64,000 bases of DNA, taken from NCBI GenBank assembly GCA_052055015.1, contig JBQJIT010000006.1; one strand, 5' to 3'. Within the stretch, counting starts at the first letter, position 1. Each line of letters opens with the position of its first letter. Positions 3,488-64,000 of this stretch are shown here, in pieces. This DNA is from Malassezia furfur (Eukaryota). A model generated the notes under the pieces. That model was not told the origin of the DNA, ran no database searches, and was given only the letters and a program-made list of their open reading frames with translations. Position numbers and translations under genes: made by a program.

Positions 3488-4551
3488 CTAGATGATCCGC
3501 TGTGGCGCCAGCTGCGCGGGTGCGGGGCTCGACTCGACCACTGCCGGCGGCTTGGACGGGTTCGCTTCCGGAGCCGAGAACAGCTCGGCGTTGCTCGTCA
3601 GCGGCCGACCATCGGAGGCAGCGCGCTGCTTGGCGTTCGCCTCGTGCAGCGGCAGTCCCTCGGCTTTCCAGCGTTTGATGTAGTCGCGCACCTTGGCCAG
3701 CACCTCCTCCTTCGTCGTGCTCTTGCCGAACGCGTCCACAAACTTGCCCTCGGGATCCATCAGGTAGAAGAAGATGGAGTGATCCACGAGGTAATCCTGC
3801 GTCGGATCCGCACCCGGCGGCGTGCTAAAGTATACGCGGTACGCCTTGCACGCCTTCTTCACGTCGTCATACGAGCCCGTGAGGCCGACCATGCGGGGGT
3901 GGAAGTCCGCAATGTACTCAGCCACGAGCGGTACACGGTCGCGCGCGGGGTCGCACGTAATAAACACGGGGTTGATCACCGGGCCTGCCTCCCGGTCCAC
4001 GACATCTACCACCTGCGACATCTTGTCAAGCTCCTCGGGGCAGATGTCGGGGCAGTTGGTGAAGCCAAAGTAGATCAGGCTAAAGCTGCCAAGCAGGTCC
4101 TCGTCCGTGATGGGATGACCAGTGGATGACACCAGCGTGAAGGGGCCGCCGATCATCGGACGGCCGACCGACTGTTCTTGCATCTGTTGCAGGCGCCGCT
4201 CATCGATCTTACGCTTCTCATGCTGGAAGTAGTAGTAGAGGCCGACACCGGTCGCGATGAACAGAAGAGCCGCAGGCACATTGAAAGGCTGTGTGAGTCT
4301 CGCAGTTTACGTACGCCCGTCAGCTGCTTGCTCGATGCAGCGCTACGTTTGGGCTGTCCAGAGGCTGCCTCGTGTTCGAGCCGCTCGGCGGCGGACTTCA
4401 TCTGTTCCGTGAGCGACGGCTTCTCTGGCCCCTTGCCATCGGTGGAGTAGGTGCGGAGTGCGTACGGCACACGCGCATACCCCTGTGCCACAGCAGTAGG
4501 GGACACGCAGAGCGCCCTCGCGCCGCTCGTCATTCTTCGTGCCCAGAGCAT
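3488..4551 (-). CDS. SCO1: Mitochondrial copper chaperone Sco1; 26-nt intron 4289-4314
   Basis: IGGPFTL, YFGFTNCPDICPEEL (CxxxC), YLVDHSIFFYLMDP. Splicing joins QLTG|PFNVPAALLF to a presequence-like exon. Confidence 0.92.
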
Positions 4552-4609
4552 CGGTGGGTGGTCGGTGCGTTGCGAAGACCGCACTTCGGCCGAAGACGCC
4601 ACGACGCGA

Positions 4610-6852
4610 ATGAGCCGCCGGCTGAATCGACGTCAGCAGCGCGAGCTCGAAGAGCTCAAGGAGCTCGATGCCATCAAAGCGGATGTCGACGAAGAGGCTG
4701 CGCCGGAGCGCGAAGATCCGGAGCCGTCTGCGCCGATGCTAGGGTTTGCCGCGGTATGTGGTGCCTGCTGACCCAGCTCCAAGTTGCCGACGACGACGAA
4801 CCGGCAGACGAGCCTGAGCCTGAGCCTGAGCCGGCGCCCGCCAAGAAGAAGAAGAACAAGAAGAAGAACAAGCGCAAAGATACCACAAAAAGTACGCCGG
4901 CCGCCGATGCGCCGCCCAAGCGCGAAGAGAAGCCGGCAAAGGACATCAACGAGATGTCGATCGAAGAGATGACCGCCTTCCTCCAGGCGCAGCAGCCGCA
5001 AGATGCGCCGCGTACTGAGCCCAAGGCCAAGAGCGAGCCTGTGTCGCCGCATGCCGTGCTGCGTGGTTCGCTCGCGCTCGATGCGCCGCAGCTCGACCCT
5101 GCGCTGGAGCTACGCCGCCAGTTTGGTGCGGCGGCGATCAAGGCGTACGAGCGTGAGAAGAATGCGGCAGGGATGCCGACGCGCGCCGGCGCACGCAGCC
5201 GCGAGAACCGTGGTGCTATGTTCAACTCGAATACGCGTGCGCGCACGCTGCTGTGCACGCCCAAGGCCACCTGGCCGGACATTGCGCGGACGTTTGTGGG
5301 TCTGAGTATGACCACGGACGAAAACGCCTCGGGCCGTGTGTGCAACTGGGTGCACAGCCGTGCGTACCGCCAGGCGCAGTTCCAGTTTGCGCAGGCGGTC
5401 AACTCGCACGACACGGGTGCACTGATGGCGCTGATGCGCGTCTTTCCCTGGCACATTGACACGCTTCTCCAGCTCTCCGACGTGTCGCGCTACCAGGGCG
5501 ATCTCGGGCAGGCGGCCGACTTTATTGACCGCGCGCTGTTTGCCATGGAGCGCTCGGCCGCGCCGCCGTTCACCGCGGGCCTCACTTCGTCGAGTGGGCC
5601 GCCGCAGGTCGACTTTTTGCGCGCCGAGAACCGCGCCTTTTGGCTCGCCGGGCACCGCAACGTCGACCTGTTTGGCCGGCGTGGTACGTGGCGCACGGCA
5701 CTCGAGTGGTGCAAGCTGCTGCTTGGCCTGGACACGACCGACCCACACGGTATGCTGTTGTGGATCGACTTCTTGGCGATCAAGAGCAAGCAGCATGCGT
5801 GGTTGCTGACGTTCCTCGACGCGCTCGAGGCCGAGCGCCGCGAGGTCATCGCCGCCCACGGCCACCTCGACAACGTCGCGGCACGCACCCCGCTCGACGC
5901 ACAGAAAGAGGCCGCGCACGAAACGTGGGACGGCGCACTTGACTGGAGCGTCGGAGCCTCGTTCGCACGGGCGCTGGCGTTGCGCGCCGTGGAGAAGGAC
6001 GAGGGCGACAAAACGCACACGCGCAGCAATGCCGCGCTGCGTCTCGCCCTCGCACGCCACCCGTGTGCGGCCGCGCTGCTCTGCGAAAAGCTCGACCTGC
6101 CCGTCCCGTCGTTTGTCCAGATGCGGGGGCAGTGGAGCGCCAAGGACCCGGCATTTGACGAGCTGCTGGCGCACCTCTATGTGCATCGCTCCATCTCGCT
6201 CTGGAAAGAGGCACCCGTCGCCGCATGGTTCCGCACCGTCTGGGACGAGGTTCGTCCGCAGCTTGAGCAAGCACGCGTCACGCCGGGCGCCGCCGACGAG
6301 GTGACGCGCATGGGCGTGTACCGCCACGTGGTCGTCGCCGACCTGCCTGAGGCGCTGCAGCAGCAGCTCATGCGCTACTTCCCGCCGGCGGTGCGCAATC
6401 CGCCGGGCGGGATGGAGACGTTTGATCCGCTGCCACCCGCACACGGATCGCGGTACGACGACGCATACTTTGCTGTGGTTGGTGACCAGCTGCGGCAGCA
6501 GCAGCCTGCGGGTAGCCAGCGCGGCGCGTGGGAGATTTTGCGCCACCTGCAGAACCTGGGCGCCGACGAGCTGCAGCAGCTCATGGACTTTGTCGACCCC
6601 GAGACCCGCGACCTACTGCTGCAGGCGCACGGCGCGCGCGAAGCGGGCGAGCTGGGCGACGTGGGCGACGTCGAGGAAGACGACGGCTTCGAGACGGAGG
6701 AGGAGCCGCTCGACGGACCAGACGACGAAGCGCCTACGGCGGCGGCGCCCGCCGCACCCGACGCGCCTGCCGATGCGTCTGCCGACACGTCTGCCGAGGC
6801 TGCGCCCGCGCCCGGCCTCATGCAACGTGCGTGGAATGCACTGTGGGGATAG
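4610..6852 (+). CDS. RQC1: Ribosome quality control subunit Rqc1/TCF25; 23-nt intron 4754-4776
   Basis: MSRRLNRRQQRELEEL start, poly-K patch, ELRRQFG, FPWHIDTLLQLS, ENRAFWLA, RRGTWRTALEWCKLLLGLD...DPHG (TCF25 family). Confidence 0.85.
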
Positions 6853-8230: not shown

Positions 8231-11200
8231 ATGGATTCCAACGAGGTTCAGCTGGCACAAGCTGTGGAAATTGCGTCCAATGCAGCGGCAGTGACCGACA
8301 CGAACCTGGTGTCGCAGGCGCTCGCGTACCTGGAACAGCTTAAACAGGCCACCGACGAGTCCTGGAGCACCGGGTGGGCCGTGTGGGTTGCGCGCGACGA
8401 CGGGCACGCCAAATATGCGCATGCCGTGCGTCTGTTCGGTTTGAACCTGGTCGATGACTTTCTCGAGCGACGGTACGTGGCGCACACCACTCACGCAGCG
8501 TGCATGCCGTGGCCAACCCCGGAGAAACGCTGGCCTTCCTGCAAGAGTCAACGCTCGCCTACCTGCAGATTGAGTTTGTTGCAGGCAACGGCGAACAGGG
8601 TGTGGTATTCATGAAAAACAAGCTCGCGCAGACGCTCTCGCTGCTCGTGCTGCAGACGTACAGTTTGACGAACTCCTACTCCTTCCTGATGGCGCTGCTT
8701 ACCCTGTGCACGACGACCGAGGCGCAGGACGGCTCGCTGAACGCGCTGACCACAGACCTTGTGCTGCGTGTGCTGCATGACCTGTCGCTCAGCCTCGGCT
8801 CGGACGTGACGCTGCGCTCGGTGCGCTCCAAGGAGCGCCTCCAGCGCGATGCCGTCGTCCGCGATGAGATTCGCGCGCACCATGCGTCTAACATTGCCGA
8901 GCTGCTCTGGAAGGTGATCCGCGACGCGCTGAGTGCCCTGACTTCCGAGGCGCCGGTCGCGAACCCGTCGCCACACAGCCTGTACGGTGGTGCGGCCGGC
9001 AGCCTGGCGCAGGTCGCGATGGCGGTGGTCGGCGACTTTGCGACGTGGATCGACATTGGGCTCGTGATCAACATGGACACGGTGCCGATCCTGTTCAACG
9101 CGCTGCACTCGCAGCACCCCCAGCTGCGCTGCGTCACGGCGGATACCCTGTGTGAGATTGTGTCGAAGGGCATGAAGCCGGCTGACAAGCTGGCGCTTAT
9201 CCAAGGGCTCAAGCTCGACGAGGTCGTTGCCTCGCTTGAGTCGTCCACGCGCAGCGCCGCACAGGGCGGCGGCGGCGGCGAGGATGCAGCGAGCGAGCTG
9301 CGCGAGCATCTCGCCAAGCTCGTCAATGTGGTCAGCATCGAGCTGTGCAAAATCGCCGAGGACCAGGCGGGTGCCGAAGCCGAGACGCGCGAGGCGGCAC
9401 AGGCCAAGCTGCTCGACTTTTTGCAGCTCGTGCTGGCATTCTTGCAGGACGAGTACGACGAGCCGGCCGAGCAGGTGTTGCCGAGCATCCACCTCGTCCT
9501 CTCGCTGTACAAGAAGAACAAGCGTCAGGGCGAGGCCATGGGCGCTGGTCTGAGCGGCGCGCAGGCCGAGTTTATTGCGCGGCTCATCCAGCTCGTCCTG
9601 GCCAAGTTCCGGTTCGACGGTGAGGTGGACTGGGAGGACTCGTCGCTGGTCGGTGGCCCTGCGGACGCCGACGCCGACGATGCCGAGGAGGACGACGAAC
9701 AGTTGCTCAAGTTTTACGAGCTGCGCAAGCAGCTGCAGATGATCATGGGCGCCATCGCGGCGATTGACGAGCCGCTTGTCTCCAACACGATTCACTCGCT
9801 CGTCTCCTCGACGCTGGCGCTCGGCGAGCAACAGGAGCTGCCCTGGGAGCAAGCGGAGCTGTGCCTGTACGCAATCTACTCGTGCGGCGAAGTGCTCAGC
9901 TCGATCCGCGGCAACAAGGTGGGCCTTGGCCCGCACTCCTACGTGCAGCTCCCCGACGAGCCCGGCAAGGCGCGCAACGTGCGCCAGTCCGTCTCGGTAT
10001 ACCAGAGCTTGCCGCTGAACCAGCTTGGCGAGATGCTTCAGCTCGTGTTCCGCTCGCGGCTCTCGGAGCATCTGCACCCCGTCGTTCAGCTGCAGTACTT
10101 TGAGTGTGTGGTGCGCTATGCGTCGAGCTTCCTGCTCTGGCCCGAGTTCCTGCCCGGCGCGCTGTCCGCGTTCCTGGACGCACGCGGACTGCGCAACCCG
10201 CGCGTGGGGATGCGGCGGCGCATCAACTACCTGTTCTACCGCTTTGTGCGCGATACCCGCTCGGCGATCCCCGCAGAGTTTGTCCCGCGGCTGCTCGAGG
10301 GCATGCAGGAGTCGTTCTATGTGCAGGCCAAGCTCCCCGAGGTCACGCCGGAGGAGGACCCGCTGCAAAAGGCGACGGAGCGCGCGAGTGCGTTCGACAG
10401 TCAGCTGTATCTCTTTGACACGGCGGGCCTGCTCATTGCGCAGCTCAGCCCGTCGCCCGACACGCAGGTGATGCTGTTCAAGGCCATCACGCAGCCGCTC
10501 GCCGAGCAGCTGCAGCAGGCCGTGCAGGCGTTTGGCGCAGACAACACGAACCTGCAGCCCGTGCTGCAGGCGCACCATCTGATCCTTGCGCTCAGCACGC
10601 TCGCCAAGGGTTTCCCGGACTACGACGCGAGCCGCACGACGGAGCCCGCGTGGATCCCCGAGTTCAAGCCCGTTACGGAGCAGATCCTGCTTGCGCTCAC
10701 CGCGCTGAACCAGTTTATGATCATCCGCGAGGCGGCGCGCGGTGCATTTGCGCGGATCGTCACGTCCGCAGGCCCGGCGGTGCTGCCCTACATACCCACA
10801 CTAATCCATGCGCTCGTGAACGAAGTGAGCGAAGGCGAGCTTGTCGACCTGCTCAACTTCTTTGGCCTGATCACACACAAGTACAAAAAGGATGTGCGCG
10901 ATGTGATGGACGACCTGTTCATGGTGCTGGTCAACCGCATCTTCTCCTTCCTGAACCAGAGCGTCCAGGGCACCGACGACTACGTGCGCCGCGCCGACAT
11001 GGAGCGCGCCTACTTTGGCCTCGTCAATGCGCTCCTCTCGGCGGGCCTCGACGGGGTGCTCGTCTCGGAAAAGAACCAGCAGCAGCTCCAGTCGGTGCTG
11101 CAGAGCCTCGTGTTCTACGCAGAAAACGGCGAGCCGCTCACGCAACGCTCAGCGATCGGCGTCCTGGTGCGCCTCGTGACACTGTGGGGCACGCGCTCGG

Positions 11201-13804: not shown

Positions 13805-14492
13805 ATGAATGTCGAGAACTTGCCACCGTTCACGACAGTGTGGGTGGTGAGTGCCTTGACACTTTCTGCTCTTGAGAAACTGGAATTTGTGTCTCGATAC
13901 CAACTCTTTTACTCTTCCCACTTGGTTTTCCATGCGGGCCAATATTGGCGGCTGCTAACGTCCTTCATGTACTTTGGTTCCTTCAGCAGCTACTATTTGT
14001 TCAATCTGCTGGTAACCATGCGGTACTCTTACATGCTGGAAGTGGAAACGTTCGGGACGACAAGACGCGCAGACTACGCATGGCTCCTGCTCGTCTCTTC
14101 TCTCATCCTCCTAAGCCTTAGCTCGCTCCTTTCTATGCCATTCCCCGGAGACGGACTATCGTATGTGCTCATGTATATCTGGAGCCGCAAAAACCGACAC
14201 ATCCGCATGGGCTTGTTTGGTCTAATCGTATTCTCGGCCCCGTACCAGCCGTACATCATCACCGCTATCAATTGGGCACTGCAAGGCAACAGTGCCGAAT
14301 TCCTGCATGATGTGGCATCCTTGCTTGTGGGACATCTAGGTATGTGCGGACAACTCTGACCCAGTGTTCTTCTTGACTGACATTTGGCCAAACGAATACG
14401 AGTCGAACGGCTACAAATTCCTGGAACCACCACTTTTATGGTACGTCACAAGTTCTTTTCGCTTATACAGGCGACGGTTATGGGATTTCTAA
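13805..14492 (+). CDS. DER1: Derlin (ERAD); introns 14340-14364 (25 nt) and 14441-14470 (30 nt)
   Basis: LPPFTTVW, QYWRLLTSFMYFG, YIWSRKN, APYQPY; splicing gives VGHL|VFFLTDIWP. Confidence 0.85.
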
Positions 14493-14625: not shown

Positions 14626-16883
14626 ATGTCGGCAGCATGGCGCAGATGGCTCGGACTTGCGGTTGTGAGCGAGCCTCGAGCGCTGTATGTGCCTTCGAGG
14701 ACGCTTCATAGCACTTCGTGTGCTCCCAAAAAGGCGGCGTCGAAATACACCAAATATATGATGCTCAATGCACGGAACAAGCGGAGCAGTGAGCGTGCAT
14801 CGAAAACTCCCCGACCTGAGCCAGCAGCGAAAGCGACCAAAAAGACAAAGAAGGAGAAGGCCGTGTCAGAAAAGATGGCAAACTCGGTCGAGAAAGCGGA
14901 CAGTGCGCCAAAACCCGCGGTAGTTGCAGCGTCCTCGGCAGCCCCCGCCCCTGCGGCTTCGCCCCCACCGAAAGTGGTTTCCTTCCCGCGGCCGTCCGCG
15001 CGTCGTATACCTCGTCCTACCAGTTTCCTTCGTGGGGAAGATGCGGACCGTGCTCGTACCGTGCGTCTAGAAGAGTACAAGGATGGACAAGGAAGAGACG
15101 GCGAGCGAGTAGGTCGATTGGCCGCATCCGATGTGACGGTCGAAAGTATGTGCCTTTGACTGACCCAGCCGTGCCTCCGCTGCGGAAAATGCAGGTTGCT
15201 ACTTTGGCTCATGGACTGGACAGGGTATTGTTCAAGTACGTCGACAACTAACGCAGCCCTGGTGTGCACTGGCTCCGCGACCGACACTCGGGCATTTACA
15301 ATTACGACCGCCAGCTCCAAAAAGTGCTCGACGTGGACCTGTTTGACTACGGTGCTCTTCCGCCCTATCTTACATCTAGCAAGGACCCTGAGCTGCTCGC
15401 CATCACCAAAAAGTATGGCAAACGTTTCTGTGGCAGCACCAGCAGTATGACGGGTTTGTTAAGTCACTGTTACTATCTGCTGAGCCGTTGGAAAGAGCCT
15501 GAACTGCATGGTTTTAGCCCGAGTTTCTGTGACATGCCCACCGGGTTTAGTGAGGGTGCTAAGCTACCGGTGTCGGTCCGGCTGCAGCGCCAGCCGGACG
15601 GATTTTACGCCATCGATGCAGACAAAGGCTCGGATGGCGAAATTGACAATTCCAACTACGTGTTGACGTCGCTGGGCAAAAGCCTGGAGAAGTATCTAAC
15701 GGTGCCGCTCAAGGAGTACGCTATGTACGAGCGCATCAACAGCCACAAACTTCCCAAGAGCGCACGGGAGGCGAAGGAGGCATACCATTACGCACAGTCC
15801 TCCCAATTCCTCATGCGGTCGCAGCTGGATTGCTCTGATGAGCGCCTTCCAAACCGCACGTTTGATTTGAAGACGCGGGCGTGCGTCTCCATTCGGCATG
15901 ACCGCGCAAACTACGCTGAGAGTAGCGGCTACCAAATTCTGCAATCCAACGGCCTGTGGGAGTCGTTCGAGCGTGAGTATTGGGACATGGTTCGCGCCGC
16001 ATTCCTCAAGTACAACTTCCAGGTGCGCATTGGCAACATGGATGGGATTTTTGTGGCGTATCACAACACCTCCCAGTTGTTCGGTTTCCAGTATATCACG
16101 TTGGATGAGATGAGTGAGCGTCTGTTTGGCAGTGCGCAGATGGGAGAGCTGGCGTACCGCCTCTCGCTTGGCCTCCTTGAAAAGATTCTGGAGGCCGCCG
16201 TGGAGCATTTCCCCGACGAGTCATTGGGCATCACGCTTGAGACGCGCGCAGGAGCGAGTGCAATGAATGTACTGGTGCAGAGCGAAGACGGCTCTCGCAT
16301 CATGCAGTTTGACGTGACCATGGACCGCTATCTGAACAATGCGCTGGTGCGCGGCCCGGTCGACCCCGCTGGAATCAATGGAACACTGAGCGATGCACAG
16401 CTGGAGGAGGTGCGGACGGGACGGTCTAGCCAAACCAACCTATCGGACTTGACATGGCACGTTGACTACTGTATCACGCCGCGTCACGATCTGAGCCCCG
16501 TGCATATGCGGAGCAATTTGCAGGATATCCGGCAACGACAGCAGGCGCTGCAGTCGATGGTGCTTCCTAATGTCGAGAAGCTCAACGAACGCGAAGAATA
16601 CCGCATCGATGTACTTTCTGAGCGCCCTCGCGCTCTGGCACGGTTCCTGGAAGAGCGCGAGAATGGTACTGCGATCGGTATGCCCCGTGCCCCCGGCCAA
16701 CTGAGCACTCGCGAGATTATGGAGCGCAAAGGCATGGCACTGGTCAAGTCGGTGCCCAAGCCTACGCAGCTCCCCGACCAGCCCGACATCAAGTGGCAGC
16801 GCATCCCCGATGCCACCACCCGCAAGCTGCGCGAGCTGAGCCGCCAGGGTGCGGAAGAGTACAAAGCACATGGCACAAAATAG
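14626..16883 (+). CDS. PET127: Mitochondrial 5'-3' exoribonuclease Pet127; introns 15146-15168 (23 nt) and 15236-15256 (21 nt)
   Basis: Spliced LAHGLDRVLFN|PGVHWL, GSTSSMTGLLSH, MRSQLD, FDLKTRA, FEREYWDMVRAAFLKY, QVRIGNMDGIFVAYHN. Confidence 0.92.
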
Positions 16884-18156: not shown

Positions 18157-19822
18157 ATGCGCATCGGCGCAGCTTGGGCCAGGTGTGGAGTGTGGTGGCT
18201 TCGCAAAGGATACGCATCCATGAGCAACGCACGCCGCGGCTATGCGGAGGCAATTGACGCACTCAACTCGCTTCAATCCAATGCAGCAACGATTGAAGCG
18301 ATGCGCAAGAGCGGAAAGACGGTTAACGAGCTTAATGAGCCTGAAATGACCGAGTACTTGGAACGCATCGGACACAAGCGCCATGAGCTCGACCAGATCA
18401 ATGTCGTGCACATCACCGGCACCAAGGGCAAAGGATCAACTGCTTCTTTCTGTGATTCGCTCCTTCGTGAATTTCGCACAAGCGAAACGCAAAAGATCGG
18501 CCTGTATACCTCGCCTCATATGGTTGCTGCTCGCGAGCGCATCCGTATCGACGGTGTGCCACTGTCAGAAGACGATTTCGCTCGTTTTTTCTGGGAGGTC
18601 TGGGACCGCCTGGAGACCAACTCTGAGCGTAAATTTGAAGTGACTCCGCTCCGACCTATCTACTTTCGTTTCATGACCTTGTTGGCATTCCATGTCTTCA
18701 TTACCGAGCGCGTTGCTGCGACGCTACTCGAGGTGGGCATTGGTGGAATGTACGACTCCACAAACATTGTGAACCATCCCATTGTGACTGGTGTGACGCC
18801 TTTGGGTCTGGACCACACCGCCATTCTCGGAAATACTATTGAGGAGATCGCCGTGCAAAAAGCAGGGATCTTCAAAAGCGGTGCCCCAGCCATGACCACC
18901 GCACAGCCTGAGAATGCTTTGGATGCCATGCGTGCGTATGCCGAAAAAGTGAACGTCTCGAAATTCGAGGTCGTCCCTGAACTCGCGTGCTTGAAGTCGG
19001 TTGCACTTGGTCTGCCGGGTATGCATCAGCGCACAAACGCGAGTCTTGCCGTTGCACTGGTCCGTGCCTTTGCTGAGTCGGAGGCTGGGAAGTCCATTGT
19101 GCCCGATGCAGCCGATGCACTGCAGACGGACGGCAGCCAGGTGTCGAACAAGGCAGTCAAGGCGCTCGAGACGGCCTTTTGGCCCGGGCGCTGTCAGGTG
19201 GTACCGGCACTCGAAACCGCTGGTGCAACCTATTTCTTGGATGGTGCGCATACGATCGAAAGCATTCAGTTCTGTGTGCGTTGGTACCTCGATCAGGTGT
19301 TGCACTCGCCGGAGAAGCGTGTGCTTGTGTTTAACTGCACCAACATGCGGTCCGGCACCACACTTTTGGGTGCGCTGATTGGCGAGTTAAAGCATCGGGT
19401 TCCCAAAGATGACATTCCTACCTTCTTTTCGCGCGTCTATTTCTGCACCAACAACACGTTTGCAGATGGCGGCTCGGCGAGCGGTACGTAACGAAACTGA
19501 CGCAGACTTGGTGTCGCGCGCCGTGGACAGCAAAGACCTGGAGAGCATGAAGCTACAGCAGGAACTACTCCGCGCCTGGTGCTCACTGCTGCAGCTTTCC
19601 GAGCCGGCTACTGGTCAATTGACGGTAAGCGTCGGAGAGTCGTCAGTTGTGCAAGTGATGCCGAGCATCGAACATGTCATGCGCGCCGTCAAGGATTTGA
19701 ACAACACTCCCAATGTCTTTGTGGCGGGCAGTCTGCACTTAGTGGGCGGTTTCATGGCCCATCTGCAAAACCAAGGCGTGCTCGATGAGCGCCTGGCCAG
19801 CTGCAGTGCCAAGACTGCGTAA
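18157..19822 (+). CDS. MET7: Folylpolyglutamate synthase; 22-nt intron 19484-19505; second in-frame ATG at 18220
   Basis: HITGTKGKGST, YTSPH, RERIRIDG, EVGIGGMYDSTN, WPGRCQ, LDGAHT, and VFVAGSLHLVG in exon 2. Confidence 0.93.
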
Positions 19823-22314: not shown

Positions 22315-22753
22315 ATGAGCGCGGATCCCGTTGAGAAAGACAAAGAGGTCGCTTCGTCGACGGAAGCTCCTGAGAATGAGACCACTATCTCGGAGGTGAA
22401 GTCTGGAAAAGCGCGTGCGACGGACGAGCAGCCCACCAACGAGGAGGACGAGGAGGAGGAATACAACGAGGAAGAAGACGAGGATTTCGTGCGTGTCCCG
22501 CTCTGACCCCAGGTGGAAGAGGAGACCGATGAGGAGGAGGATGAAGAGGAGGATGAAGATGATGAGGACGAAGATGATGACGACGATGAAGACGATGAGG
22601 GTGAAGCGTACGTGTTTTGATTGACGCAGCGAACACGGCCACAAGCGGAAAGCCGACGAGGACGAGGACGATGACGATGACGATGACGACGACGACGACG
22701 ACGATGAAGAAGAGAAGTCCGACCCGCACAAGATGCGCAAGACCGACGAATAA
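22315..22753 (+). CDS. 130-aa highly acidic, probably nuclear protein (prothymosin-like or histone-chaperone-like); introns 22489-22512 and 22608-22629
   Basis: Three exons of 174+95+124 nt are in frame. D/E tracts with HKRKA...KMRKTDE* as a bipartite NLS-like end. Confidence 0.75.
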
Positions 22754-27796: not shown

Positions 27797-28585
27797 TTAC
27801 ATAGGCGGGCGCGCCGTCGGTGCCGGGCGCCCATGCAGGCTATCTACGCCTGCTTTGACTGAAGATATGGGTTGCGTCGGAATCGGCAGCAGGCCGGTAT
27901 CCTCGGCATGGTGCACCACTAGGCCGGGATACCGCGCCGTATCGGTCCCTGGCTCCACAACCACCACGGAGCCCGTGGACGGCGCCGCGTCGGCCTGCGC
28001 CGCGGCGTCCGTGTGGGGCTCCTCTACCAGCTTTTGCAGCGCATCGATCAGGTCCTGCGCCAGCGTCTCCTTGTTCGGCCCGTCCTCCTCGCGCGGTTCC
28101 CAGCCGACCGGTGGACTGCCGGGCGGACTAATGAGAAACTCACGCTCCGGTGCAGGCGGCGCAAGGTGCTGCTGGTGAGCCTCAGCGCTCCGCGCCACGA
28201 CGTAGTCACCATCGGGCATGAGCACCAGGGGCGTCGGCACACAAAAGTACACGCGCAACACGCTAGGTAAGCCGAATTGGGCGTACTCTTCGCTGTTTTT
28301 CGCACGGATCGGGGCGTCGCTCGTGTGCACACGCGCCTGGTCGTCTTCGTACAGCAAGAGAAGACGGTCCAGTGCGTATTTGACGCGTGCGGCATCCTCA
28401 GCTCGTTCAAACACGGCAATGCCACGTCCAAAGGCGGGGAGTACAGTCCAGTCCACCAGGGGGCCATAGGTCTGTAGTAGATGCAGTAGTTGCTCCACCA
28501 GCTCCTCGGAAGCGAAAAAACCGGGGGGCAGATTGGCGAACATGAGCGTATTCGATGGTTCAGGAGTCTGTTGCCAGGTAAGCAT
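27797..28585 (-). CDS. RCN1: Calcipressin (calcineurin regulator); probable in-frame 24-nt intron 28263-28286
   Basis: HLAPPAPEREFLISPPGSPPVGWEPREEDGPN and C-terminal PTARPP. Confidence 0.88.
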   Translation of the reverse strand: MLTWQQTPEPSNTLMFANLPPGFFASEELVEQLLHLLQTYGPLVDWTVLPAFGRGIAVFERAEDAARVKYALDRLLLLYEDDQARVHTSDAPIRAKNSEEYAQFGLPSVLRVYFCVPTPLVLMPDGDYVVARSAEAHQQHLAPPAPEREFLISPPGSPPVGWEPREEDGPNKETLAQDLIDALQKLVEEPHTDAAAQADAAPSTGSVVVVEPGTDTARYPGLVVHHAEDTGLLPIPTQPISSVKAGVDSLHGRPAPTARPPM

Positions 28586-36613: not shown

Positions 36614-37479
<866 letters not shown>

Positions 37480-46713: not shown

Positions 46714-47764
46714 ATGCCGCCCAAGAAAGGAGGAGGTGGGGGCGGCAGCGGCGCCCCCAAGGTGAAGATCGACAAGGTGCGTGTCTAGACTGACGCAGAC
46801 GTTCGGTATGAAGAACAAGAAAGGTGCCAAGGCCCAGCAGCAGGTCAAGATTATCCAGCAGCAGCAGCAGCAGGCGGGCAAGAGCCGTGAGGCGCTCGCC
46901 AAGCAGAAGCAGAAGGAGGAGGAGAAGCGGCTCAAGGCCGAGGCCGAGAAGAAGCTCAAGGCCGAGGGCCCGCCGATTGTGCAGCCGCGCGTGCCATTCG
47001 GTGTGGACCCGAAGAGCATTACGTGCAACTTCTGGAAAGCCGGCCGCTGTGACAAGGGCTCCAAGTGCAAGTTTGCGCACTCCAACGATGCCCAGCGCAA
47101 GCAGCAAAAGAAGGACCTGTACACCGACACCCGGGACCAGAAAGATGAGGACAAGGACAAGAAGGAGGATACGATGGACAAGTGGGACCAGGAGCGGCTG
47201 AACAAGGTCATCAATATGAAGCACGGCAACCCGCGCACGACCACCGATAAGGTGTGCAAATACTTCCTCCAGGCCGTCGAGGATGGCAAGTATGGCTGGT
47301 TCTGGGAGTGCCCGAACGGTGGTGAAAAGTGCATGTACCGTCACTGCCTGCCGCCGGGCTACGTGCTCAAGTCGGAGCGCAAGGAGCGCGAGGCGCTGGA
47401 AAAGGCCAGCGAGATCTCCCTAGAAGAGTTTTTGGAGTCGGCGCGGCACAAGCTCGGCCCGAACCTGACGCCCGTGACGCCCGAGTCGTTTGCCAAGTGG
47501 AAGAAGGAGCGGCAAGACAAGCGCGTCGCCGAGGAGGAGGCGCAGCGCCAGAAGAAGGCGACGCAGGCCCAGGCCAACAAGCTGGCGGGCCTGAGCGGCC
47601 GGGAGATGTTCGCGCTGAACCCCGACATGTTCGGCGACGAGGACGATGGCGACGACGACGACGGTGCGCTGGACATGACCTCCTACATGCCCTCCGGGTG
47701 GGAGCAGGGGCGCGACGAGGAGGCGCCTACGGAGGAGATGGAGCGGATGCGGGTGGAGGAGTAA
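46714..47764 (+). CDS. TMA46: Tma46/ZC3H15 CCCH zinc-finger DRG regulator; 22-nt intron 46777-46798
   Basis: MPPKK...IDK|TFGMKNK, GVDPKSITCNFWKAGRCDKGSKCKFAH, GKYGWFWECPNGG, LTPVTPESF. Confidence 0.93.
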
Positions 47765-47827: not shown

Positions 47828-50273
47828 TCACGCACGACTTGCGCCGCCGCGCCAGCCGGCGTTGCCGAGGTAGTTTTGCGCGCTCTGCGCCAAGGCGCTC
47901 CAGGCGATGCCCTCACCACCGCCCGCGTTCGTCCAGTGGTGGAGCGCGGTGCTGAGCAGGCCGCCCGTCTGGGTTTGCGACACGGCAGACATAATGGTCG
48001 GGCCGCTCTCGGGGATGTCGGGCATCGCCTCTTGCTTGACCTTGCGCCGGGCGCTTTCCATGAGCGCGGTGACATCGGCCTTTTCCATGTCGTCGCGCGC
48101 GCGCAGCAGCGCCTCGAGGAAGGCAAGGTTCGGCCCGTGCGCCTTGGCAAATGTCCAGTACGGCAGGAAGACCATCGCGGGCGAGGAGGAGAGGATCGCG
48201 TGGCTGCGTCAGTGGGCCCGGGGGAACGTACATCATGTGGAGGACCTCGACGCGGCTCGTGGCCTCTTCGGGCGGCCGCATCGACGAGATGAGCTGCGTG
48301 AGCTCCCCGATGTCGGTAATGAAACGCTCGGCGGCCTTGGGCATGCGCAGGCGCGCGGCGCGGCGCAGCGTCGTAAGGTAGGCAACGAACAGGCGCGACA
48401 CCAAGTCGTCGGAGAGCACGTCGAACAGGTTGGGCTCGAGGCGCGCGGCGTAGTCCGCGACGTAGTCGCGCACCGTTTCGCAGATGGTCGCCGTGGTGCC
48501 CTCGACGTACCACGCAGGGAACGTGAACAAATCGTGGAATGCGGGACGCAGGTCGAACAGCACGATCTCGACGAGGAGCTGCGTGCAGTGTTTGCTGATG
48601 TCCAAGAAGCCATTGAGGGTATTGTCGATGTTTTCGCGCACATGTGCCTTATACTGCGCCGCGACAAGCGGCTCGACGCGCGCCAGGAGCGCCTCGCTCT
48701 GGTCCGCGCTCGCAAGCTGGTCGTTTGCGAGGGCGATCATGTACTCGACGAGGCCGCCGTTGACCTCCTCGGGACGCTTCGCCGTGGTCTGCTTCTTGAA
48801 CTCCTGTTGGACGATCTGGAGCCAGGAGGCCTGGCGGTTGCGCATCACGGTGCACGCATGGTCGATCACGCGCACGAGCAGCTCGGCGTCGCCCGCGTGC
48901 GCCGCCGTGTCGATCTGCTGGTTGACCATGCGGAAGAGGATGACGCACGACGACAAGAGGTACATGCCGTTCGCGTCCTCGTCCGGCGCCTTTTCGCGGG
49001 TCACGAATGCGGTGATCTCGTCGTGCATCAGCGTCGCGGTCCACTCGTCCATCTTGCGCGTAAGCAGCGAGAGGTAGTCGTCCATGATGTTTTCCTCGCG
49101 CCCGCCGAGCAGCGACGGCTGGAGCCAGGCCTCTTCGATCCCGCGCGCGGGTTCGAGCAGGCGCGACTGGTGCTGCTGCGCTAACTGGTACAGCTCGAGG
49201 AGCTCGGTAGCGCCTGCGTCCTGGACCGCGACCTTGTCCTGGAGCAGCTGGCCGAGCGCGCGGTGGTAGGTCTGGACGTAGGTGCGGTAGATGTGGTAGG
49301 ACTCGGGGAAGAGGGACACGACCTGCGTGCGCACCACATTGAGGTCCGCGTACATCCACTGCGCCTGTTCAAAGAAGCTCAGCGGCGACGGCTCCTGCGC
49401 CTCCTCCCAGCTCGCCTCGAGTCGGCGCTGCGTGGTGAGGAGCAGCGTGTCTTGCAGCTTGATGCGGTACAACTTGATCGTGTGTCCGTACGTCGCCATG
49501 CTGCGGAAGCGTGCGGAGCCCTCGATGTTGGCGCGCTTTGCCAGACGGATCGCCGCCGTCTTTTCGTCCTCGCGGTTCTCGCGCTCGAGGATCGCGACGA
49601 GGCGCACCACGACGCCCTGCTGCCCCGCGCGCACGAGGTTCAGGATGTTGGCGCAGAGGAGCATGAGGTATGTCTCGAACGACGACAGGAGTGTCTCGAG
49701 CGGCTCGAGCATCTGGACAAGCTGCTGCTGTACGACGTCGCTGCTCCCCGCGGCGAGGTGCAGCGTCTCGTTCCGGAACGCCTCCCATTGCATGATGCGG
49801 TGGTGCAGGGAGAGCAGCTCGGGCGCGGGGCCGAGCAGGTTTGCCTGGTACTCTCCGAGCGTCTGCGCGAGCTCGCGTACCTCGATGGGCAGCTGCTCGA
49901 GCTTGGCGAGCAGCGCGGTGGTTTGGACGAGCGTGCGGCGCACCTGGGACAGCTCGCTGATTGTGCGGAAGCTGTTGCCGCCCCGTGTGTCCTTGGTGGA
50001 GCCCCCGCCCTCGCTCTGTGCATCGTTGCACATCGACTCGATCTGCGAAAAGACTTCGTGGATGCCGGCGGCCTCGCGGCGGGTCGACTGCAGCTGGAGA
50101 AGACCCTCGCGCACCGCCTCGAGCTGGTCCTTGGCGCCGACCTTGAGCTTGGCCGAGAGCGTCGCATGCTCGCGCGTGAGCTTGCGACGCAGTGCCGTGA
50201 TCTTAGCGAGGTCATCCGGCGACTTGAGGTGCTCGGCGATGAGGCCCGCCGGATTCGTCGCGTTCCACGCCAT
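47828..50273 (-). CDS. SEC6: Exocyst subunit Sec6; 28-nt intron 48204-48231
   Basis: PDDLAKI, LFRMVNQQID, GLVEYMIALANDQ, spliced HMI|HAILSSSPAMVFLPYWTFAKAHG...LLRARDD. Confidence 0.88.
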
Positions 50274-53092: not shown

Positions 53093-53835
53093 ATGTCAAA
53101 GGTTAGCATACAGCATCGTTCCCTGACACCAGGCCCAGATCCTGCGTGAATACAAGCTCGTCGTGGTCGGCGGGGGAGGTGTAGGGAAGTCGGCCCTCAC
53201 CATCCAGTTCATGCAGAACCAATTTGTGGATGAGTATGATCCGACCATCGAAGGTACGCATTCGCATGCACTCTGACCTACAGACTCCTACCGAAAGCAG
53301 GGTGTCATCGATGAAGAACCAGCATTGCTCGATGTGCTCGACACGGCAGGCCAGGAAGAGTACAGCGCAATGCGCGAGCAATACATGCGCACCGGCGAGG
53401 GGTTCCTCCTCGTGTACAGCATCACAAGCCGGAGCTCGTTCGAGGAAGTCAGCACATTCTACCAACAGGTGCTCCGCGTAAAGGACCGAGACTACTTCCC
53501 CGTGGTCATGGTAGCCAACAAGTGCGACTTGGAAAGTGAACGACAGGTCAGCACTGCAGGTACGTGGGGTAAACGCAACTGACACACCAGAGGGCTACGA
53601 TGTTGCAAAGCGGTTCGGATGTCCATTCGTCGAGACTTCGGCCAAGCAGCGTGTCAACGTCGACGAGGCCTTCAACGACCTCGTTCGTGAAATCCGCCGG
53701 TACAACAAAGAGCAGACGTACGGACACATTGGACCGTATGGCATGAACGCTAGCGCACCGGGTGTCGCACACACTTCCAACGTGTCCGACTCTGACGTCG
53801 TCTCCAAGGGGTGCAAGGGCTGTGTCATCATGTAA
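53093..53835 (+). CDS. RAS1: Ras GTPase; introns 53102-53132, 53254-53283, 53560-53590
   Basis: [26 protein letters not shown]...YDPTIE|DSY...DTAGQEEY...NKCD...ETSAK...CVIM (CAAX). Confidence 0.95.
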
Positions 53836-55452: not shown

Positions 55453-56779
55453 ATGCGGGGTACCGACGCACAGAATCCTTTGGCGACGCCAGAGCGCTTC
55501 TCGTATCCCCATGCAGCTCAGTCGGAGATAGTCCGTGCTCACCAAAAAGATGTATACTATCGTGATCAATTCTACGCACAATTAAAAGAGGTCGCGAGCG
55601 ACGTGTTGGGCTCACGGCGCAGCCATGTATATGGAGAACTGCTGTCGCTTGTCGCGAGTGTCGCTTATTTCGGGCTGAGCACGCTTGGAGGTGCTCAGTC
55701 CCTAGGTGAGGAGTATGTGAATGCGGTGATGCGGTACCGTCCAACAGGCCGGATCATTCACGCCAAGGTATGTTACAACACTCACGCGAAAGCGACGCGC
55801 TGTTTTCATTATCTTGCACATTGTCGCACCCTTTGTGCTGAAACAGGCATACAGTCTATTGCGTCTTTACCTCACGCGCAAAGACCAGCAAATTGCCCAG
55901 CGGAACCAGCGCGAGCTCGTTCGTGCACAAATTGCGGCGGCTCAGGAGAAGCCTACCGAAGTTGTTCGTCGAAACTGGTATAAGCGTCTGCAACAAAAAT
56001 ATGAGGCAACGGTGCAATGGCTGGCCCTTGTACTACCAGGATCGCATGTGCTCGAAGCATCCAATGGCCTCGTGGCCTATATATCCGCTGCTCAGCTCAC
56101 CGTGTTCTACTTGTTTGGCCGGTATTACACGTTGGCTCATCGCCTTGCAAAAGTGGACTATCTGTACGCAAGCGCGCATCGTCCCAACTCGCGCCCACAG
56201 TCGTATGAGGTTTTGGGTGTGCTCCTTGGAACACAACTGCTTGTCAAATTGGGTATGACGATCCATGCAAGCTACAAGAAATACAAGGAAAACACATTGC
56301 AGGCATCAGAGAACGATGCAATGATGAACGCAACCGATCCATCTAATTCTGTGCGCCCTTCCATGTCTGTGCAGCTCGATGATATTTACGTTTCGCACGG
56401 CGACCAAGCAGCCGCGCCATTGGGCCACAAACAGCCGGCGGGCCTTCCCCTGGATTACCCTGATGCGAGTGCACCGCTGACTCCCGAACAGCTGGGTTTC
56501 CCGCTTAAGATGGACGCGGCGGACCGGTCACGTTTTGAGGCGGCACAGGCCGCATGCCGTGCGAAGACCACCCAGCTTGAGACCGTTGCTGACGAGGTGC
56601 TGCGATGTACATTGTGCATGGACCGACGCACGCCCGAAATGGGCAACAGCGCGGTAACAGAATGTGGTCATGTCTTCTGTTGGGATTGTATCACGGGCTG
56701 GATCAAGGAGAAACCTGAATGCCCCCTCTGTCGCCAAGCGGTGCAGGCAAATAAGCTTATTCCGATCTACAATTTGTAA
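55453..56779 (+). CDS. PEX10: Peroxin Pex10; 25-nt intron 55768-55792
   Basis: AAQSEIVRAHQKD, QSLGEEY, FYLFGRYY, SYEVLG, C3HC4 RING CTLC...CGHVFCWDCI...ECPLCR. Confidence 0.93.
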
Positions 56780-60833: not shown

Positions 60834-61633
60834 ATGGCATCGCGGCTGCTGGACCAGTCGCTCGCGGACGTGCGCCGCGAACGGAGAGCCTCGGGCGGTA
60901 GCGCTCGCGCCGCGCCATACGAGGTATGCGTTGATGTGATCGACTGACCATACAGCGTCTACAGCGTGCTTCCGATGACACGTGGAAGCACGACAAGTTT
61001 ACAGAGCGACGCGGCGCGCCGCGTCACGGCCCTCCGTCGGCGTCGCACGCAGACCAGGTCGCAACGAAGGTGGCCATCGATGGGCTGCACTACGAGGTGT
61101 CCGAGCAGGAGCTGAGGGTACGTACACACTTATTGTGTAGCTGACGCCAGGACCTGTTCAGCCAGGTGGGGCCCGTCGCCAAGGGACCCTCGATCAAGGT
61201 ACGCACCGTGCCTCTTACACCAGTTCGACGCATCGGGGAGATCAACTGGATCCGCCATGGTGTGGTACCACTCTGAGGAGGATGCCCAAGCCGCCGTGGA
61301 CGAGTTCGATGGTGCCAAAGCCAAGGGCGAAACGATCCAAGTCAAGGTGCTTGGAACGACGCGTCTAAACCCTGGTCCGTCCAAAAAGGGTACAGCAGGC
61401 CGCACCCCGTCCCTCGCAGACCGTCTTGCTGGGACTGCGCCGCAACCCAAACACAAAGTGCCCACGTCGAAACCGCGGGGCGCGCGCCGCGAGCGGAACG
61501 CACGCCGTGCGCCGGCGTCGGCAGCGGATTTGGATGCAGAGCTGGACGCGTTTATGAATGCGCCGGCTGCACAGCCGGACCAAGGGGTATGTCCTGCATT
61601 GCTGATCAACAGGAAGTGGCTATGGAAGAGTAA
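60834..61633 (+). CDS. YRA1: mRNA export adaptor of the Yra1/ALY family; introns 60924-60955, 61118-61150, 61199-61223, 61587-61612
   Basis: LLDQSLAD N-box, WKHDKF, RRM (IDGLHYEVSEQELR|DLF...FDASGRSTGSA), ADLDAELDAFM C-box. Confidence 0.8.
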
Positions 61634-64000
61634 TTAGGCCCCCTCCAGCTCCATTAGCGCCTCGCGGTCGCGCCGTTTCTTTACCAGCCCGTACTCGCGC
61701 GAAACCTGTGTTGTATTCATCCATCCCTCGGGAACAAAGTCGGCGATCTGGCATGAGCATAGCGAGTACGTACGCGTTTGTACAGTGCCTTGCGCGCATT
61801 AATCTCGCTGTAGGTCTCGGGTGAATTCTCGAGCTTCAGTTTCTCGTTCCGGATCTCGCTCATCGCATTCTCGACGGTGACGATGGTAAAGAGCTCGTCG
61901 CGCATCTCGTCGGTCCATCGGAACCGCTTCGCATGGTCTGTGGTAAGTGATGACACCTACCGTCGTTCGCGCCTGTCCCGTCCTCCTTCTCGGTGAGATC
62001 GACTTCGCGGTCGTCGTCGTCTTTTTCGTCGTCGTCGTCCTTTTCGTCGTCATCGGAGCCAGAAACCGACGCATTCGACGCATTCGTAGTGTTCTCAAAC
62101 GAGGTCTCCGACTTGTTCTCCTCGGGTGCTTTCTGTCGGCCCTTTTCTGAAGCCGCATACTCGGCGGCCTGCTGGGGGAACGAGTCCTGGATGAGCTTGT
62201 ACAGGACATCGAGCTGCTCCTCCTGCAGTTCGCGGTAGTATTCCATGTGTTTGTGGAAGAACTCGCGCTTGGTCAATTTCTAGGGTCAGCATCACACGGA
62301 AAACAGGCGTACCATCATAGTGAACCGATTGTACGGGAAAATGGACGGCAAGTAGTTGAAAAAATTGTCGTTGTACTCATCCAGCTCGACAGCCAGCTTC
62401 GCCGTATCGATCAGCGGAGGTTTGAGCTCGGGAGGGAACTTGGTCTTAACCGCAAAGCTTGCCCGCTGAACCAGGGTCTTGAGATGATCGAACATCGCTT
62501 GCAGCTGGGGATGGACGGGACGGGTAGGATACTTGTTCTTCTTCTTGTCCGCCTTGTCCGTAGACGAGCTGGGTACTGGTTGCGTCGGAGTCGCTTCCCG
62601 ATGCTGGCTCGGCTCCTGGGGGGCGGGGGGGGCGACACTGGTTTCTTTGTCTGGCTCAGCCTGCGGCGTCGGTGTCGCTTGGTCAGACGGCGTTGGCCCC
62701 TCCTCGCTGGTCTTGGGTTTCGGTGCCGGCGGTGCGATACTTTGGCTCTTGCGCGACGCTGCACGCTTGGCCAAGAGCTTGTTGGTCTGGCGCGCATAGC
62801 CAGACCAGCCACCACCCATACCCGACCCGTTGATGCTCGAGCGGAACGCCGATGCAGACCGGGAAGCGAGTTGGTTCGACTTGGCACGGGCCAATTCAAC
62901 AGGGCCCAAAGCCACATAGAACCCGTCGGAGCGCGTCTTGACAATGTGCGTGGGCTCGTCCAGACCTAGCTCAGAGTCGTCCACAAAGGGGTCCTTGGTA
63001 TCGTATGAGCCCACGTCGTATTCGTCCACACGCCGCTTGCGTTGGGGGCCGCCACTGCTTTGCGGCGGGTATTTCTGCAAAAGCTTGGCAAGGTCGCCCA
63101 GATCCTCGAGCTCTTGCTGAGAGAGGCCCACGCTTTGATAACTTGAATGCGACATTTCGGATTCCAAGTAGGTCGAGCGGTACCATGCAGCCCACTTGGG
63201 ATATTTGGATTCCAGCCGTTCGACCGACAGCTTTGGAATGGACGCGATATAGTCGCTCTTGCTAAGACTGCCTGGATGAATGTCAACTTGGAGCCGGATG
63301 GTCGGCCGGGGGAGCGTCGTCGGCGTTGCATCGTCCTCGTCCTCGTCAGGACTGGGACTACGAGGTCGCTTGCGCGACACTGCATCCGGTTCCTTCTCGT
63401 GCTTCTCAGGCTCGTCTTCTTCCATCCTTTCAGGCGCACCACTGCCTTGTTTGGACTCGTCACTGCGCACTTCCGACGACCGCGTCGCGGCCGGCTGTGA
63501 TGACGACACGGTGTCAGAGGCGGTGGATGATGTCTGCTCTGCGTTCGGTTTAACAGATGACGTCTCGGATTCCTTTGATGCCGAGCTCAGGGGAGTAGTT
63601 TGTAGTGCGACGCGACGTGGCTTGCCACGCTCATGTGAGGATTTCGGACGCTCCTGGGTATTAGAACCGCGCACTGGTTCAACTTCGCCCGTTCTTGGCT
63701 TGGGTGAGCTAGCTTTCGATGCCTTTTCGCCTCCCGTTTCCCCTGTCTCGTGTTCTGCAGACGGAAGCGGCGTATCGATGGATGGAGTTGGCTCCGTATC
63801 CCTGAATGGCTCCTCTCTCACCCGTGTAGGCTCTGAAAGCATCGCAGGCTGCTCACCTGGCATACTTCCTTGTGGTTCCTCGGACTCGGGCCGGCTCGGT
63901 TCACTTCGGGGCGCCGGCAGACTGGCTGGAGCACGCGTCAGGTTGCTCTCAGTATGTGGCCCGTTGACCTGGGTAGGCGGGCTGTCATCAATGGGGAATA
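61634..64000 (-). CDS. HPC2: Hpc2/ubinuclein subunit of the HIR complex (start at 63863 or upstream, possibly outside the window); introns 62280-62312, 61938-61960, 61748-61773
   Basis: HRD motif YDTKDPFVDDSE...GFYVALG; KFPPELKP...FFNYLPSIFPYNRFTM; last exon IADFVPEGWMNTTQVSREY. Confidence 0.8.

Follow-up and report, generated by a model that had tools for sequence, protein, structure and literature searches.

The 41 introns predicted in a 64,000-nucleotide stretch of the Malassezia furfur genome (hereafter the window; all coordinates are counted from its first letter) appear to obey a minimum made of two separate distances: no less than 16 nt between the donor and the branch-point A, and 5 nt or more between that A and the intron end. 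The 21 nt of the shortest introns would be the sum of the two. These introns also have no pyrimidine tract, and the RNA-binding face of U2AF65 has changed across Malassezia. The best reading of the sequences is that the introns are U2-type and would be excised by an ordinary major spliceosome. We consider the whole mechanism, consisting of U2-type splicing, a branch motif and AG fused into one element, and a U2AF65 that acts mainly as an adaptor, to be probable.

Independent gene models placed the introns in 22 genes of the window, which belongs to a genome of the two-subgenome M. furfur type with 62% GC. Their mean length is 30.4 nt and the median 26 nt; 36 lie in the range 21 to 35 nt, and 25 do not exceed 26 nt. 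According to gene models, profiles and protein comparison, removal of the predicted introns restores the conserved reading frame, and 13 of the predicted junctions join consecutive positions of Pfam profiles. Retention would shift the frame in 31 cases and bring in an in-frame stop in 6 more. Four introns would read through if retained; three of these have a counterpart in the other subgenome whose length is not divisible by three, and the fourth, in RCN1, is a segment missing from two NCBI Malassezia proteins. The second copy of the window, contig C7, was reached through a zinc-finger search, DNA searches having missed it; it retains donor, branch motif and AG for all 41 introns. Lengths differ between the copies in 14 of the 41, by 1–2 nt and never by a multiple of three, and in the 27 pairs of equal length identity is 0.68 for the intron spacer versus 0.89 for the flanking exon. 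A strict intron motif occurs 38 times, as compared to 9.4 ± 2.9 (maximum 18) in 100 dinucleotide shuffles, a control that is partly circular because the motif was derived from the same introns. On this comparative evidence the segments are almost certainly real introns.

Along the window (strand is given in brackets, with the length in nt here and, after the solidus, in C7), the first introns are those of SCO1 (4289..4314, −, 26/26), RQC1/TCF25 (4754..4776, +, 23/23) and the exportin-T gene LOS1 (8473..8498, +, 26/26), followed by two in DER1 (14340..14364, +, 25/23, with a GC donor in C7; 14441..14470, +, 30/29, no stop) and two in PET127, of which the first measures 23/24 (15146..15168, +) and the second, with its branch A at position 16 and an in-frame stop, is the shortest at 21/21 (15236..15256, +). 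One in MET7 (19484..19505, +, 22/22) precedes three in TAM41 (20908..20929, 22/23; 21338..21360, 23/23; 21793..21816, 24/22, no stop; all +) and two in a gene for an acidic protein (22489..22512, 24/23; 22608..22629, 22/22; both +). The 24-nt intron of the calcipressin gene RCN1 (28263..28286, −) is the weakest case, with no stop in either the window or the C7 copy; next to it lies that of LOT5 (28857..28878, −, 22/22). RPL36 has three (29538..29587, 50/50; 29767..29851, 85/83; 29911..29950, 40/39; all +), RPA49 two (34792..34815, 24/22, no stop; 34942..34966, 25/26; both +), and an Nbl1/Borealin-like gene one, again with the branch A at position 16 (35355..35376, −, 22/22). Five interrupt ARF1 (36761..36821, 61/61; 36915..36984, 70/69; 37078..37104, 27 nt, with an AAG acceptor in both copies; 37322..37356, 35/37; 37415..37449, 35/35; all +), and single ones a GMC oxidoreductase gene (42457..42481, −, 25/25), ADE2 (42964..42989, −, 26/25), TMA46 (46777..46798, +, 22/22) and SEC6 (48204..48231, −, 28/28). 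The remainder are found in RAS (53102..53132, 31/31, with donor GTTAGC here and GTAAGC in C7; 53254..53283, 30/30; 53560..53590, 31/31; all +), PEX10 (55768..55792, +, 25 nt, AAG acceptor in both copies), a gene that we label YRA1-like (60924..60955, 32/32; 61118..61150, 33/33; 61199..61223, 25/25; 61587..61612, 26/25; all +) and HPC2/ubinuclein (61748..61773, 26/26; 61938..61960, 23/23; 62280..62312, 33/33; all −).

All 41 have a GT or GC donor and an AG acceptor at the exon edges in both subgenome copies. The donor hexamers are GTACGT (18), GTATGT (12), GTACGC (4), GTGCGT (2) and five singletons; the acceptors are CAG (36), TAG (3) and AAG (2, in ARF1 and PEX10). A predicted branch motif, CTNAY or TTGAC, able to pair with the GUAGUA of U2, is present in every intron (CTGAC 19, CTCAC 6, CTTAC 6, CTAAC 4, others 6), with a purine at branch position −4 in 34. 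A sequence-only reading of the window had counted 36 of about 41 introns at 21–35 nt and 25 at 26 nt or less, and had described a layout of GTAYGT or GTGCGT, a branch motif and an AG soon after, with AAG in ARF1 and PEX10: the gene models return exactly the same counts, and the motif tallies match the layout. U12-type introns are marked by an ATCCT donor and a U12 branch box; no ATCCT donor occurs among the 41.

The two minima were recognized in a set of 113 introns, where branch points are motif calls (where motifs overlap, the call is the downstream one; use of an A further upstream would shorten the loop). The predicted branch A never falls before position 16 and never lies less than 5 nt from the intron end. 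If total length alone were limiting, 8.6 introns would be expected to have the A before position 16, as opposed to none observed, a result that none of 20000 permutations reproduced. The commonest spacing from branch A to end is 5 nt, found in 58 of the 113. In the shortest introns the donor G and the predicted branch A are 16–17 nt apart, so that the geometry proposed earlier, U1 and U2 sites about 15 nt apart, was right; this leaves only ~4–6 unpaired nt separating the U2 pairing site from that of U1/U6, and the conserved signal takes up 14 of the 21 nt of a minimal intron. A survey of 14 other contig pairs, in which known donor types were required, yielded 71 frame-forced introns up to 35 nt long, all of them 21 nt or longer in a search that admitted lengths down to 12; with four decoy donors the counts were 0, 4, 1 and 0, and in this survey too spacers diverged faster than exons. 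A search for shorter introns with any GT or GC donor left 2 calls after overlap handling and was uninformative.

We infer that the branch points are used as predicted, and that the 16-nt minimum has a physical basis. The distance would accommodate a 6-nt helix between U6 and the donor, a linker of ~5 nt and a U2/branch helix of ~5 bp. A minimal intron would begin with GTAYGT, a strong donor of 6 nt, and end in a single fused 3' element, namely R-CTNAY, 1–4 nt and YAG, the two being separated by ~5 nt or more of free spacer. No analysis of a length floor, branch geometry or splicing factors in Malassezia was found in the literature that we searched.

The normal target of U2AF65 is a tract of 9 nt, and Schwartz et al. 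(2008) reportedly observed that tract strength co-varies with U2AF65 residues. In the 41 introns the stretch between branch motif and NAG totals 95 nt, a mean of 2.3 nt, of which 55% is pyrimidine and 16% U; a pyrimidine run of 6 occurs in a single intron, and the spacer upstream of the branch is 51% pyrimidine. The tract of a canonical U2AF-dependent 3' splice site is therefore missing, as the sequence-only reading had maintained. Since there is no space for a 9-nt tract, U2AF65 would serve mainly as an adaptor linking SF1 and U2AF35, the presumed readers of the branch motif and of the adjoining AG, respectively. SF1, U2AF35 and the ULM/UHM links are all present.

The sequence of U2AF65 is in keeping with such a role. 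Malassezia retains only 0.43 of the conserved columns on the RNA face (20 columns, picked after viewing the alignment and partly on general background), versus 0.955 in the UHM, the SF1-binding domain (28 columns); the RRM columns off the RNA face have drifted as well, with 0.70 retained (61 columns). Phe occupies the position equivalent to F199 in 98 of 102 other fungi but in 2 of 18 Malassezia-like rows, K225 is kept in 93 of 102 versus 0 of 18, and R227 in 100 of 102 versus 3 of 18; these rows share kinship, and significance values are indicative only. The R227 position is Ala in the M. furfur genome studied, and in human U2AF65 the same change raises the KD from 35 to 166 nM (PMC4786784). 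The RRM2 changes N289 to D, K328 to Q and K300 to R are fixed across Malassezia. R228, V254, K260 and R334 are retained, and D256 and F304 largely so. A single-sequence fold of the protein (mean pLDDT 43) was left unused. At the level of sequence, the RNA face of RRM1 is decayed and that of RRM2 is changed, and the conserved RRM1–2 face that accompanies a canonical U2AF-dependent site is not seen; this pattern suggests that RNA binding by U2AF65 may have been lost in Malassezia. We found no description of this wear in the literature searched.

The same substitutions can be interpreted differently. With the introns and spliceosome unchanged, U2AF65 might still bind RNA through a remodelled RRM2 of altered specificity, its possible targets including the spacer, the following exon and the C-rich sequence around the branch motif. 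RRM1 varies freely among Malassezia, while the RRM2 substitutions are common to the genus and not scattered, and such fixed changes are as compatible with a new specificity as with loss; much of the set V254, D256, K260, F304 and R334 persists, and C makes up 37 of the 95 nt that follow the branch motifs, more than any other base. However, with a mean of 2.3 nt from branch to NAG and a spacer that shows no base preference past position −4, no target motif for U2AF65 is visible, and we regard altered specificity as unlikely, though it is the strongest competitor of the adaptor role.

What was found of the rest of the machinery fits an ordinary major spliceosome. The U2, U5 and U6 snRNAs are present with canonical pairing boxes (U2 GUAGUA, U6 ACAGAGA), U1-70K, U1C and Prp40 occur in two copies each, and RNP motifs are intact in U1-70K and SF3B4. 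Neither two Rfam models nor four pattern searches of the 1856-contig assembly revealed the U1 RNA, the model search having scored 41 of 173 candidates; the candidates inspected proved to be unrelated sites or donors read in reverse complement (26 of 27, 13 of 13 and 20 of 22 sites scanned, with all 22 of the last set viewed), and in a further pattern set, of which 2 of 15 were viewed, a RAD6-like intron donor was found. This result, together with a donor that has A at +4 in just 1 of 41 introns, a poor fit to canonical U1, and with U1 and U2 sites that would be ~4–6 nt apart, could be taken to mean that donor recognition falls mainly to U6, or to a U1 whose 5' end is altered, and that U1 and U2 need never be together on the intron. 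Against this stand the duplicate U1-70K (RRM intact), U1C and Prp40, and the fragmentation and partial scoring just described, and we judge it quite improbable. Loss of U1 itself is unlikely because its three protein partners are intact.

Several candidate losses were considered and rejected. Aquarius had no PF16399 match, in a search with no positive control, and was absent among 9 AAA_12 matches; Ustilago maydis also has no ortholog in Table 1 of PMC12511879, so that the absence of Aquarius is a precondition at most and not an adaptation to micro-introns. The N-terminal RN of Isy1, kept in 67 of 77 representatives, is altered in M. furfur, but M. pachydermatis keeps it, so that a genus-wide steric fix is not apparent. 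METTL16, whose loss might have caused the pyrimidine at +4, is present in two copies, and Cwc2 and Slt11/Ecm2 were both found, while the Cwc25 plug is kept. The main text of the Sales-Lee et al. preprint mentions neither Malassezia nor Ustilago. The factor loss or truncation suggested by the sequence-only reading was thus mostly not found (U2, U5, U6, SF1, U2AF35, U1-70K, U1C and Prp40 are present); its guess about a U2AF65 that has no tract to bind gains real support from the degenerate RNA-binding face across Malassezia.

That the segments are assembly errors, frameshifts or coding insertions has next to no credibility: several public predictions do read through them, including a 496-aa NCBI M. 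furfur RPA49, but independent second copies keep the signals while lengths shift by 1–2 nt, spacers diverge faster than exons, and, in the passages on M. sympodialis, 99% of 5350 curated introns have RNA-seq support (PMC5389616, PMC9241646, PMC6473144). RPA49 illustrates the annotation problem: an NCBI M. furfur entry and a 477-aa Logan entry carry both modelled junctions, whereas the 496-aa protein retains both introns and ends in the wrong frame; in M. sympodialis the 8-residue insert of an older annotation, corresponding to the orthologous 24-nt insert, is gone from the curated protein. Gene finders miss micro-introns, and Malassezia proteomes therefore contain errors.

A bolder version of the adaptor mechanism would have U2AF65 blind to tracts, a 10-nt 3' element read through SF1 and U2AF35, a 16-nt lariat loop at the physical limit and an otherwise complete fungal spliceosome without Aquarius, perhaps together with a U1 RNA too divergent for Rfam models to recognize and possibly adapted to GTAYGT; we put this combination forward tentatively, as somewhat less likely to hold than to fail.

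Tiny introns are known also from microsporidia and nucleomorphs; the introns of Yarrowia are long. Small intron size is already published for Malassezia: available passages give a mean of 30 bp for M. sympodialis, and a mean of 37.2 and a median of 30 for M. restricta, the same size class in the same genus (PMC5389616, PMC9241646, PMC6473144). The passages on M. sympodialis give means only, and 'branch' and 'short intron' are absent from the main text; the floor and the U2AF65 wear were not found reported. The earlier statement that Malassezia introns are known to be short was correct yet understated, given this RNA-seq-supported mean and the precedents in Yarrowia and S. pombe. Yarrowia lipolytica has a fused branch point and 3' splice site one nucleotide apart (PMC2911113), which is the commonest M. 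furfur spacing; unlike in M. furfur, the 5' half of its introns is not minimised. Introns of 15–16 nt are reported in Stentor (PMC9505925), of about 25 nt in Paramecium and of 22–27 nt in myxobolids and Dicyema (PMC13644364). As far as these accounts extend, such lineages share with M. furfur U2-type introns below 30 nt, canonical U2/U6 and the lack of a tract, and in Stentor, too, the branch A is followed by 5 nt, but the signals of these lineages are weak and AT-rich, in contrast to strong signals at 62% GC. Myxozoan U2AF is reported conserved (PMC13644364), whereas M. furfur U2AF65 is degenerate; Stentor has an altered Cwc25 plug, kept in M. furfur, and although the Isy1 N-terminus is altered in M. 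furfur, that of M. pachydermatis is not. In S. pombe more than 30% of introns are said, in the relevant passages, to have no tract, with U2AF65 conserved and a mean spacing of 13 nt, while S. cerevisiae has lost U2AF35 and its Mud2 retains the UHM alone (PMC8624252). By these accounts, U2AF65 can work via SF1 and U2AF35 and not via a tract, and Malassezia would be intermediate, keeping U2AF35, ULM and UHM with a worn RRM face.

It is puzzling how an intron of ~20 nt can accommodate a spliceosome, and introns of this size come mostly from parasites, organelle remnants or ciliates, where signals are weak. In M. furfur strong signals allow each of the two distances to be measured on its own, and 16 + 5 offers a sharp, testable rule for the intron minimum, while the change in U2AF65 amounts to a natural experiment on the role of this protein without a tract. 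M. furfur would be a usable model for the smallest possible intron and, if the mechanism is true, a culturable, transformable organism for the base-by-base dissection of minimum intron size.

Across 22 genes the window contains 41 introns (mean 30.4, median 26); 36 are 21-35 nt long and 25 no longer than 26 nt. Our gene models, built by coordinates with excision predicted from frame and signals, were made separately from the sequence-only reading and arrive at exactly its counts (41, 36 and 25). Splicing gives clean products (for example ARF1, 181 aa, and Ras, 216 aa), and retention of the 41 introns would cause a frameshift in 31 cases, a stop in 6 and read-through in 4. When 49 of the 52 exons of at least 20 aa (three acidic-gene exons were omitted) and the unspliced RCN1 frame were compared with Pfam, 13 junctions, in TAM41, RPA49, ARF1, ADE2, SEC6, RAS, PEX10 and HPC2, were found to join consecutive profile positions. 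The strict intron motif occurs 38 times in the window, versus 9.4 ± 2.9 times in 100 shuffles, a control that is partly circular. The five introns longer than 35 nt (40-85 nt) all lie in RPL36 (29538-29950) and ARF1 (36761-36984), which are probably highly expressed; their lengths are kept in C7, the homeologous contig, and the three introns with the greatest distance from branch to end (10-12 nt) are among them.

The assembly comprises 13.68 Mb in 1856 contigs, the window being contig C6. The window's proteins group with M. furfur entries at NCBI, many genes are present twice and paired contigs are 87.8% identical, which fits the hybrid M. furfur type, for which double-sized genomes are described in PMC9040865. 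C7, the reverse homeolog of the window from the second subgenome, carries all 41 introns between the same exon ends, each with its donor (GT or GC), branch motif and AG. Fourteen have changed in length, by 1 or 2 nt and never by three; the two AAG acceptors persist, and spacer identity is 0.68 versus 0.89 in the exon flanks. Three of the four read-through introns are non-triplet in C7, RCN1 being the exception. The intron at 14340-14364 has a GT donor in the window and GC in its C7 copy. C7, whose exon flanks are ~89% identical, went undetected when 20-kb pieces of the window were used in whole-genome DNA searches.

A wider survey ran over 241,881 aligned columns from 14 further contig pairs. 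To be called, an intron of 12-150 nt had to show the motif in each of the two copies, leave the frame open once spliced and have the support of a coding score. The looser cut-off yielded 136 calls, of which 90 were frame-forced; none of the 71 frame-forced introns of 35 nt or less was under 21 nt, though 12 nt was permitted. Spacer identity was 0.65 versus 0.92, and with four decoy donors the numbers of such calls were 0, 4, 1 and 0. Since decoys populate the longer range, survey calls above 40 nt were left out of the pooled set (n = 113), which joins 76 forced survey calls of up to 40 nt to the 37 window introns in the same size range. Branch points were called from motifs; where two motifs overlap, the later was used. 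The predicted branch A always lies at position 16 or later, 5-9 nt from the intron end (5 nt in 58 introns); no earlier branch was seen, where a limit on total length alone would predict 8.6 (0/20000 permutations). On these predicted branch points, therefore, the minimum of 21 nt is 16 + 5, that is, at least 16 nt from donor to branch A plus at least 5 nt from there to the intron end, and the limit acts on the loop.

The polypyrimidine tract, said by the earlier reading to be absent, is indeed missing: the segments between branch motif and NAG total 95 nt over the 41 introns, with 16% U. The upstream spacer is 51% pyrimidine, and information upstream of the branch motif is found only at position -4 (purine in 34/41). 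Tract strength has reportedly been linked to U2AF65 residues by Schwartz et al. in 2008. The M. furfur U2AF65 gene, on contig C938 with its N-terminus cut by the contig end, encodes a ULM, two RRMs and the SF1-binding UHM. Relative to human RRM1, the two RNP1 aromatics are replaced by R and V, K225 by S and R227 by A, in a residue numbering that is partly provisional, as are all but nine of the RNA-face positions used below. The R227A change lowers human U2AF65 binding about fivefold (PMC4786784). Among the best 120 of 645 homologs, we set the top 18 rows (6 named Malassezia and 12 assigned by rank, one of which clusters with M. furfur) against the other 102: F199 occurs in 2/18 versus 98/102, K225 in 0/18 versus 93/102 and R227 in 3/18 versus 100/102, and Y302 is I or M in 12/18, with F in 97/102 of the others. 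In a comparison of 19 with 101 rows, we took the columns with at least 90% conservation in the non-Malassezia rows; the fraction retained in the Malassezia rows is 0.43 for the RNA face (n = 20), 0.70 for the rest of RRM1-2 (n = 61) and 0.955 for the UHM (n = 28); nine face positions come from PMC4786784, and the face list was fixed after the alignment had been seen. Judged from these residues, Malassezia U2AF65 is degenerate. RRM1 varies freely across the Malassezia rows and RRM2 carries shared new residues; we think it rather unlikely that U2AF65 has instead gained a new specificity.

The simplest account would be intron definition by an ordinary spliceosome. A 16-nt loop could accommodate a 6-nt helix of U6 with the donor, a U2/branch helix of about 5 bp and some 5 unpaired nt, and would lack the extended contacts of larger introns. 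SF1 would occupy the branch motif and U2AF35 the adjoining AG, with U2AF65 as a bridge between both; for S. pombe, PMC8624252 discusses tract-independent action of U2AF65.

The sequence-only reading proposed inspecting splicing factors for loss or truncation. The RNA face of U2AF65 is degenerate in sequence; U2 snRNA (with GUAGUA), SF1 and Prp40 (two copies) are present. Two copies each were found of U5, U6 (with ACAGAGA), U2AF35, U1C, U1-70K (RRM intact) and METTL16 (contigs C507 and C146), along with Cwc25, Isy1, Cwc2 and Slt11; SF3B4 and Cwc24 are present by our reading. U1 RNA was not found in the assembly by Rfam-model and pattern searches, which we read as a search gap, an assembly gap or a diverged RNA, because the U1 proteins are intact. 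Reading of the donor U6-first or by an altered U1 seems to us improbable. Donor position +4 is C or T in 38/41 window introns and A in 1/41 (6/41 in C7), with METTL16, which is linked to +4 A, present. Profile searches of the assembly did not find Aquarius, which according to PMC10208982 binds upstream of the branch at a distance of 33-40 nt, a site that the micro-introns do not have; Table 1 of PMC12511879 lists no Ustilago maydis ortholog either. Some of these genes have micro-introns of their own: four of 23-28 nt in the U1-70K genes (L120/L121), others in the U1C genes (L197/L198), and two of 22-23 nt, with branch A at 16, in the Isy1 genes (L180/L181). M. furfur Isy1 begins MPPS (L180:1492-1503); RN stands at positions 3-4 in 67/77 representatives and is kept in M. 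pachydermatis.

Protein entries bear on the junctions themselves. Both RPA49 junctions are as modelled in one NCBI M. furfur protein and in a 477-aa Logan entry, carried by a 1607-nt contig that is probably a transcript; another NCBI entry retains both introns, and in M. sympodialis an 8-residue insert of the older annotation is gone from the curated protein. Among NCBI proteins, one from M. brasiliensis and one from M. furfur lack the RCN1 intron, and another M. furfur entry has it. That the introns are an artefact is scarcely credible; the micro-introns are real and correctly counted. LOT5 and RCN1 (27797-29377, minus strand, ~50 nt apart) are fused in one chain in six NCBI Malassezia proteins (P0022, P0026, P0031, P0035, P0441, P0453), probably a gene-finder artefact, though it may be real spliced read-through. 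Elsewhere in the window, two similar small genes on the minus strand (~54212-54926 and 57571-58207), secreted-looking and apparently Ser/Gly-rich by eye, lie near a run of ~33 A (57482-57514).

The size of these introns is already known. M. sympodialis has 5350 introns with a mean of 30 bp, 99% with RNA-seq support (Table 2 of PMC5389616); for M. restricta PMC9241646 gives a mean of 37.2 and a median of 30, and the annotation in PMC6473144 used a minimum intron of 15-20; a review mentions 'very short introns' (PMC7426719). A fused 3' end of the same type as in Malassezia is found in Yarrowia (PMC2911113). Introns of this size or below, with weak signals, occur in Stentor, myxobolids and Dicyema (PMC9505925, PMC13644364); Malassezia is not one of the exceptions named in the introduction of the latter, a 2026 myxozoan paper. 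The literature searched, mainly open access, yielded no study of branch geometry or of splicing factors in Malassezia. New relative to that literature are the 16 + 5 floor, on predicted branch points, and a U2AF65 whose sequence is degenerate.
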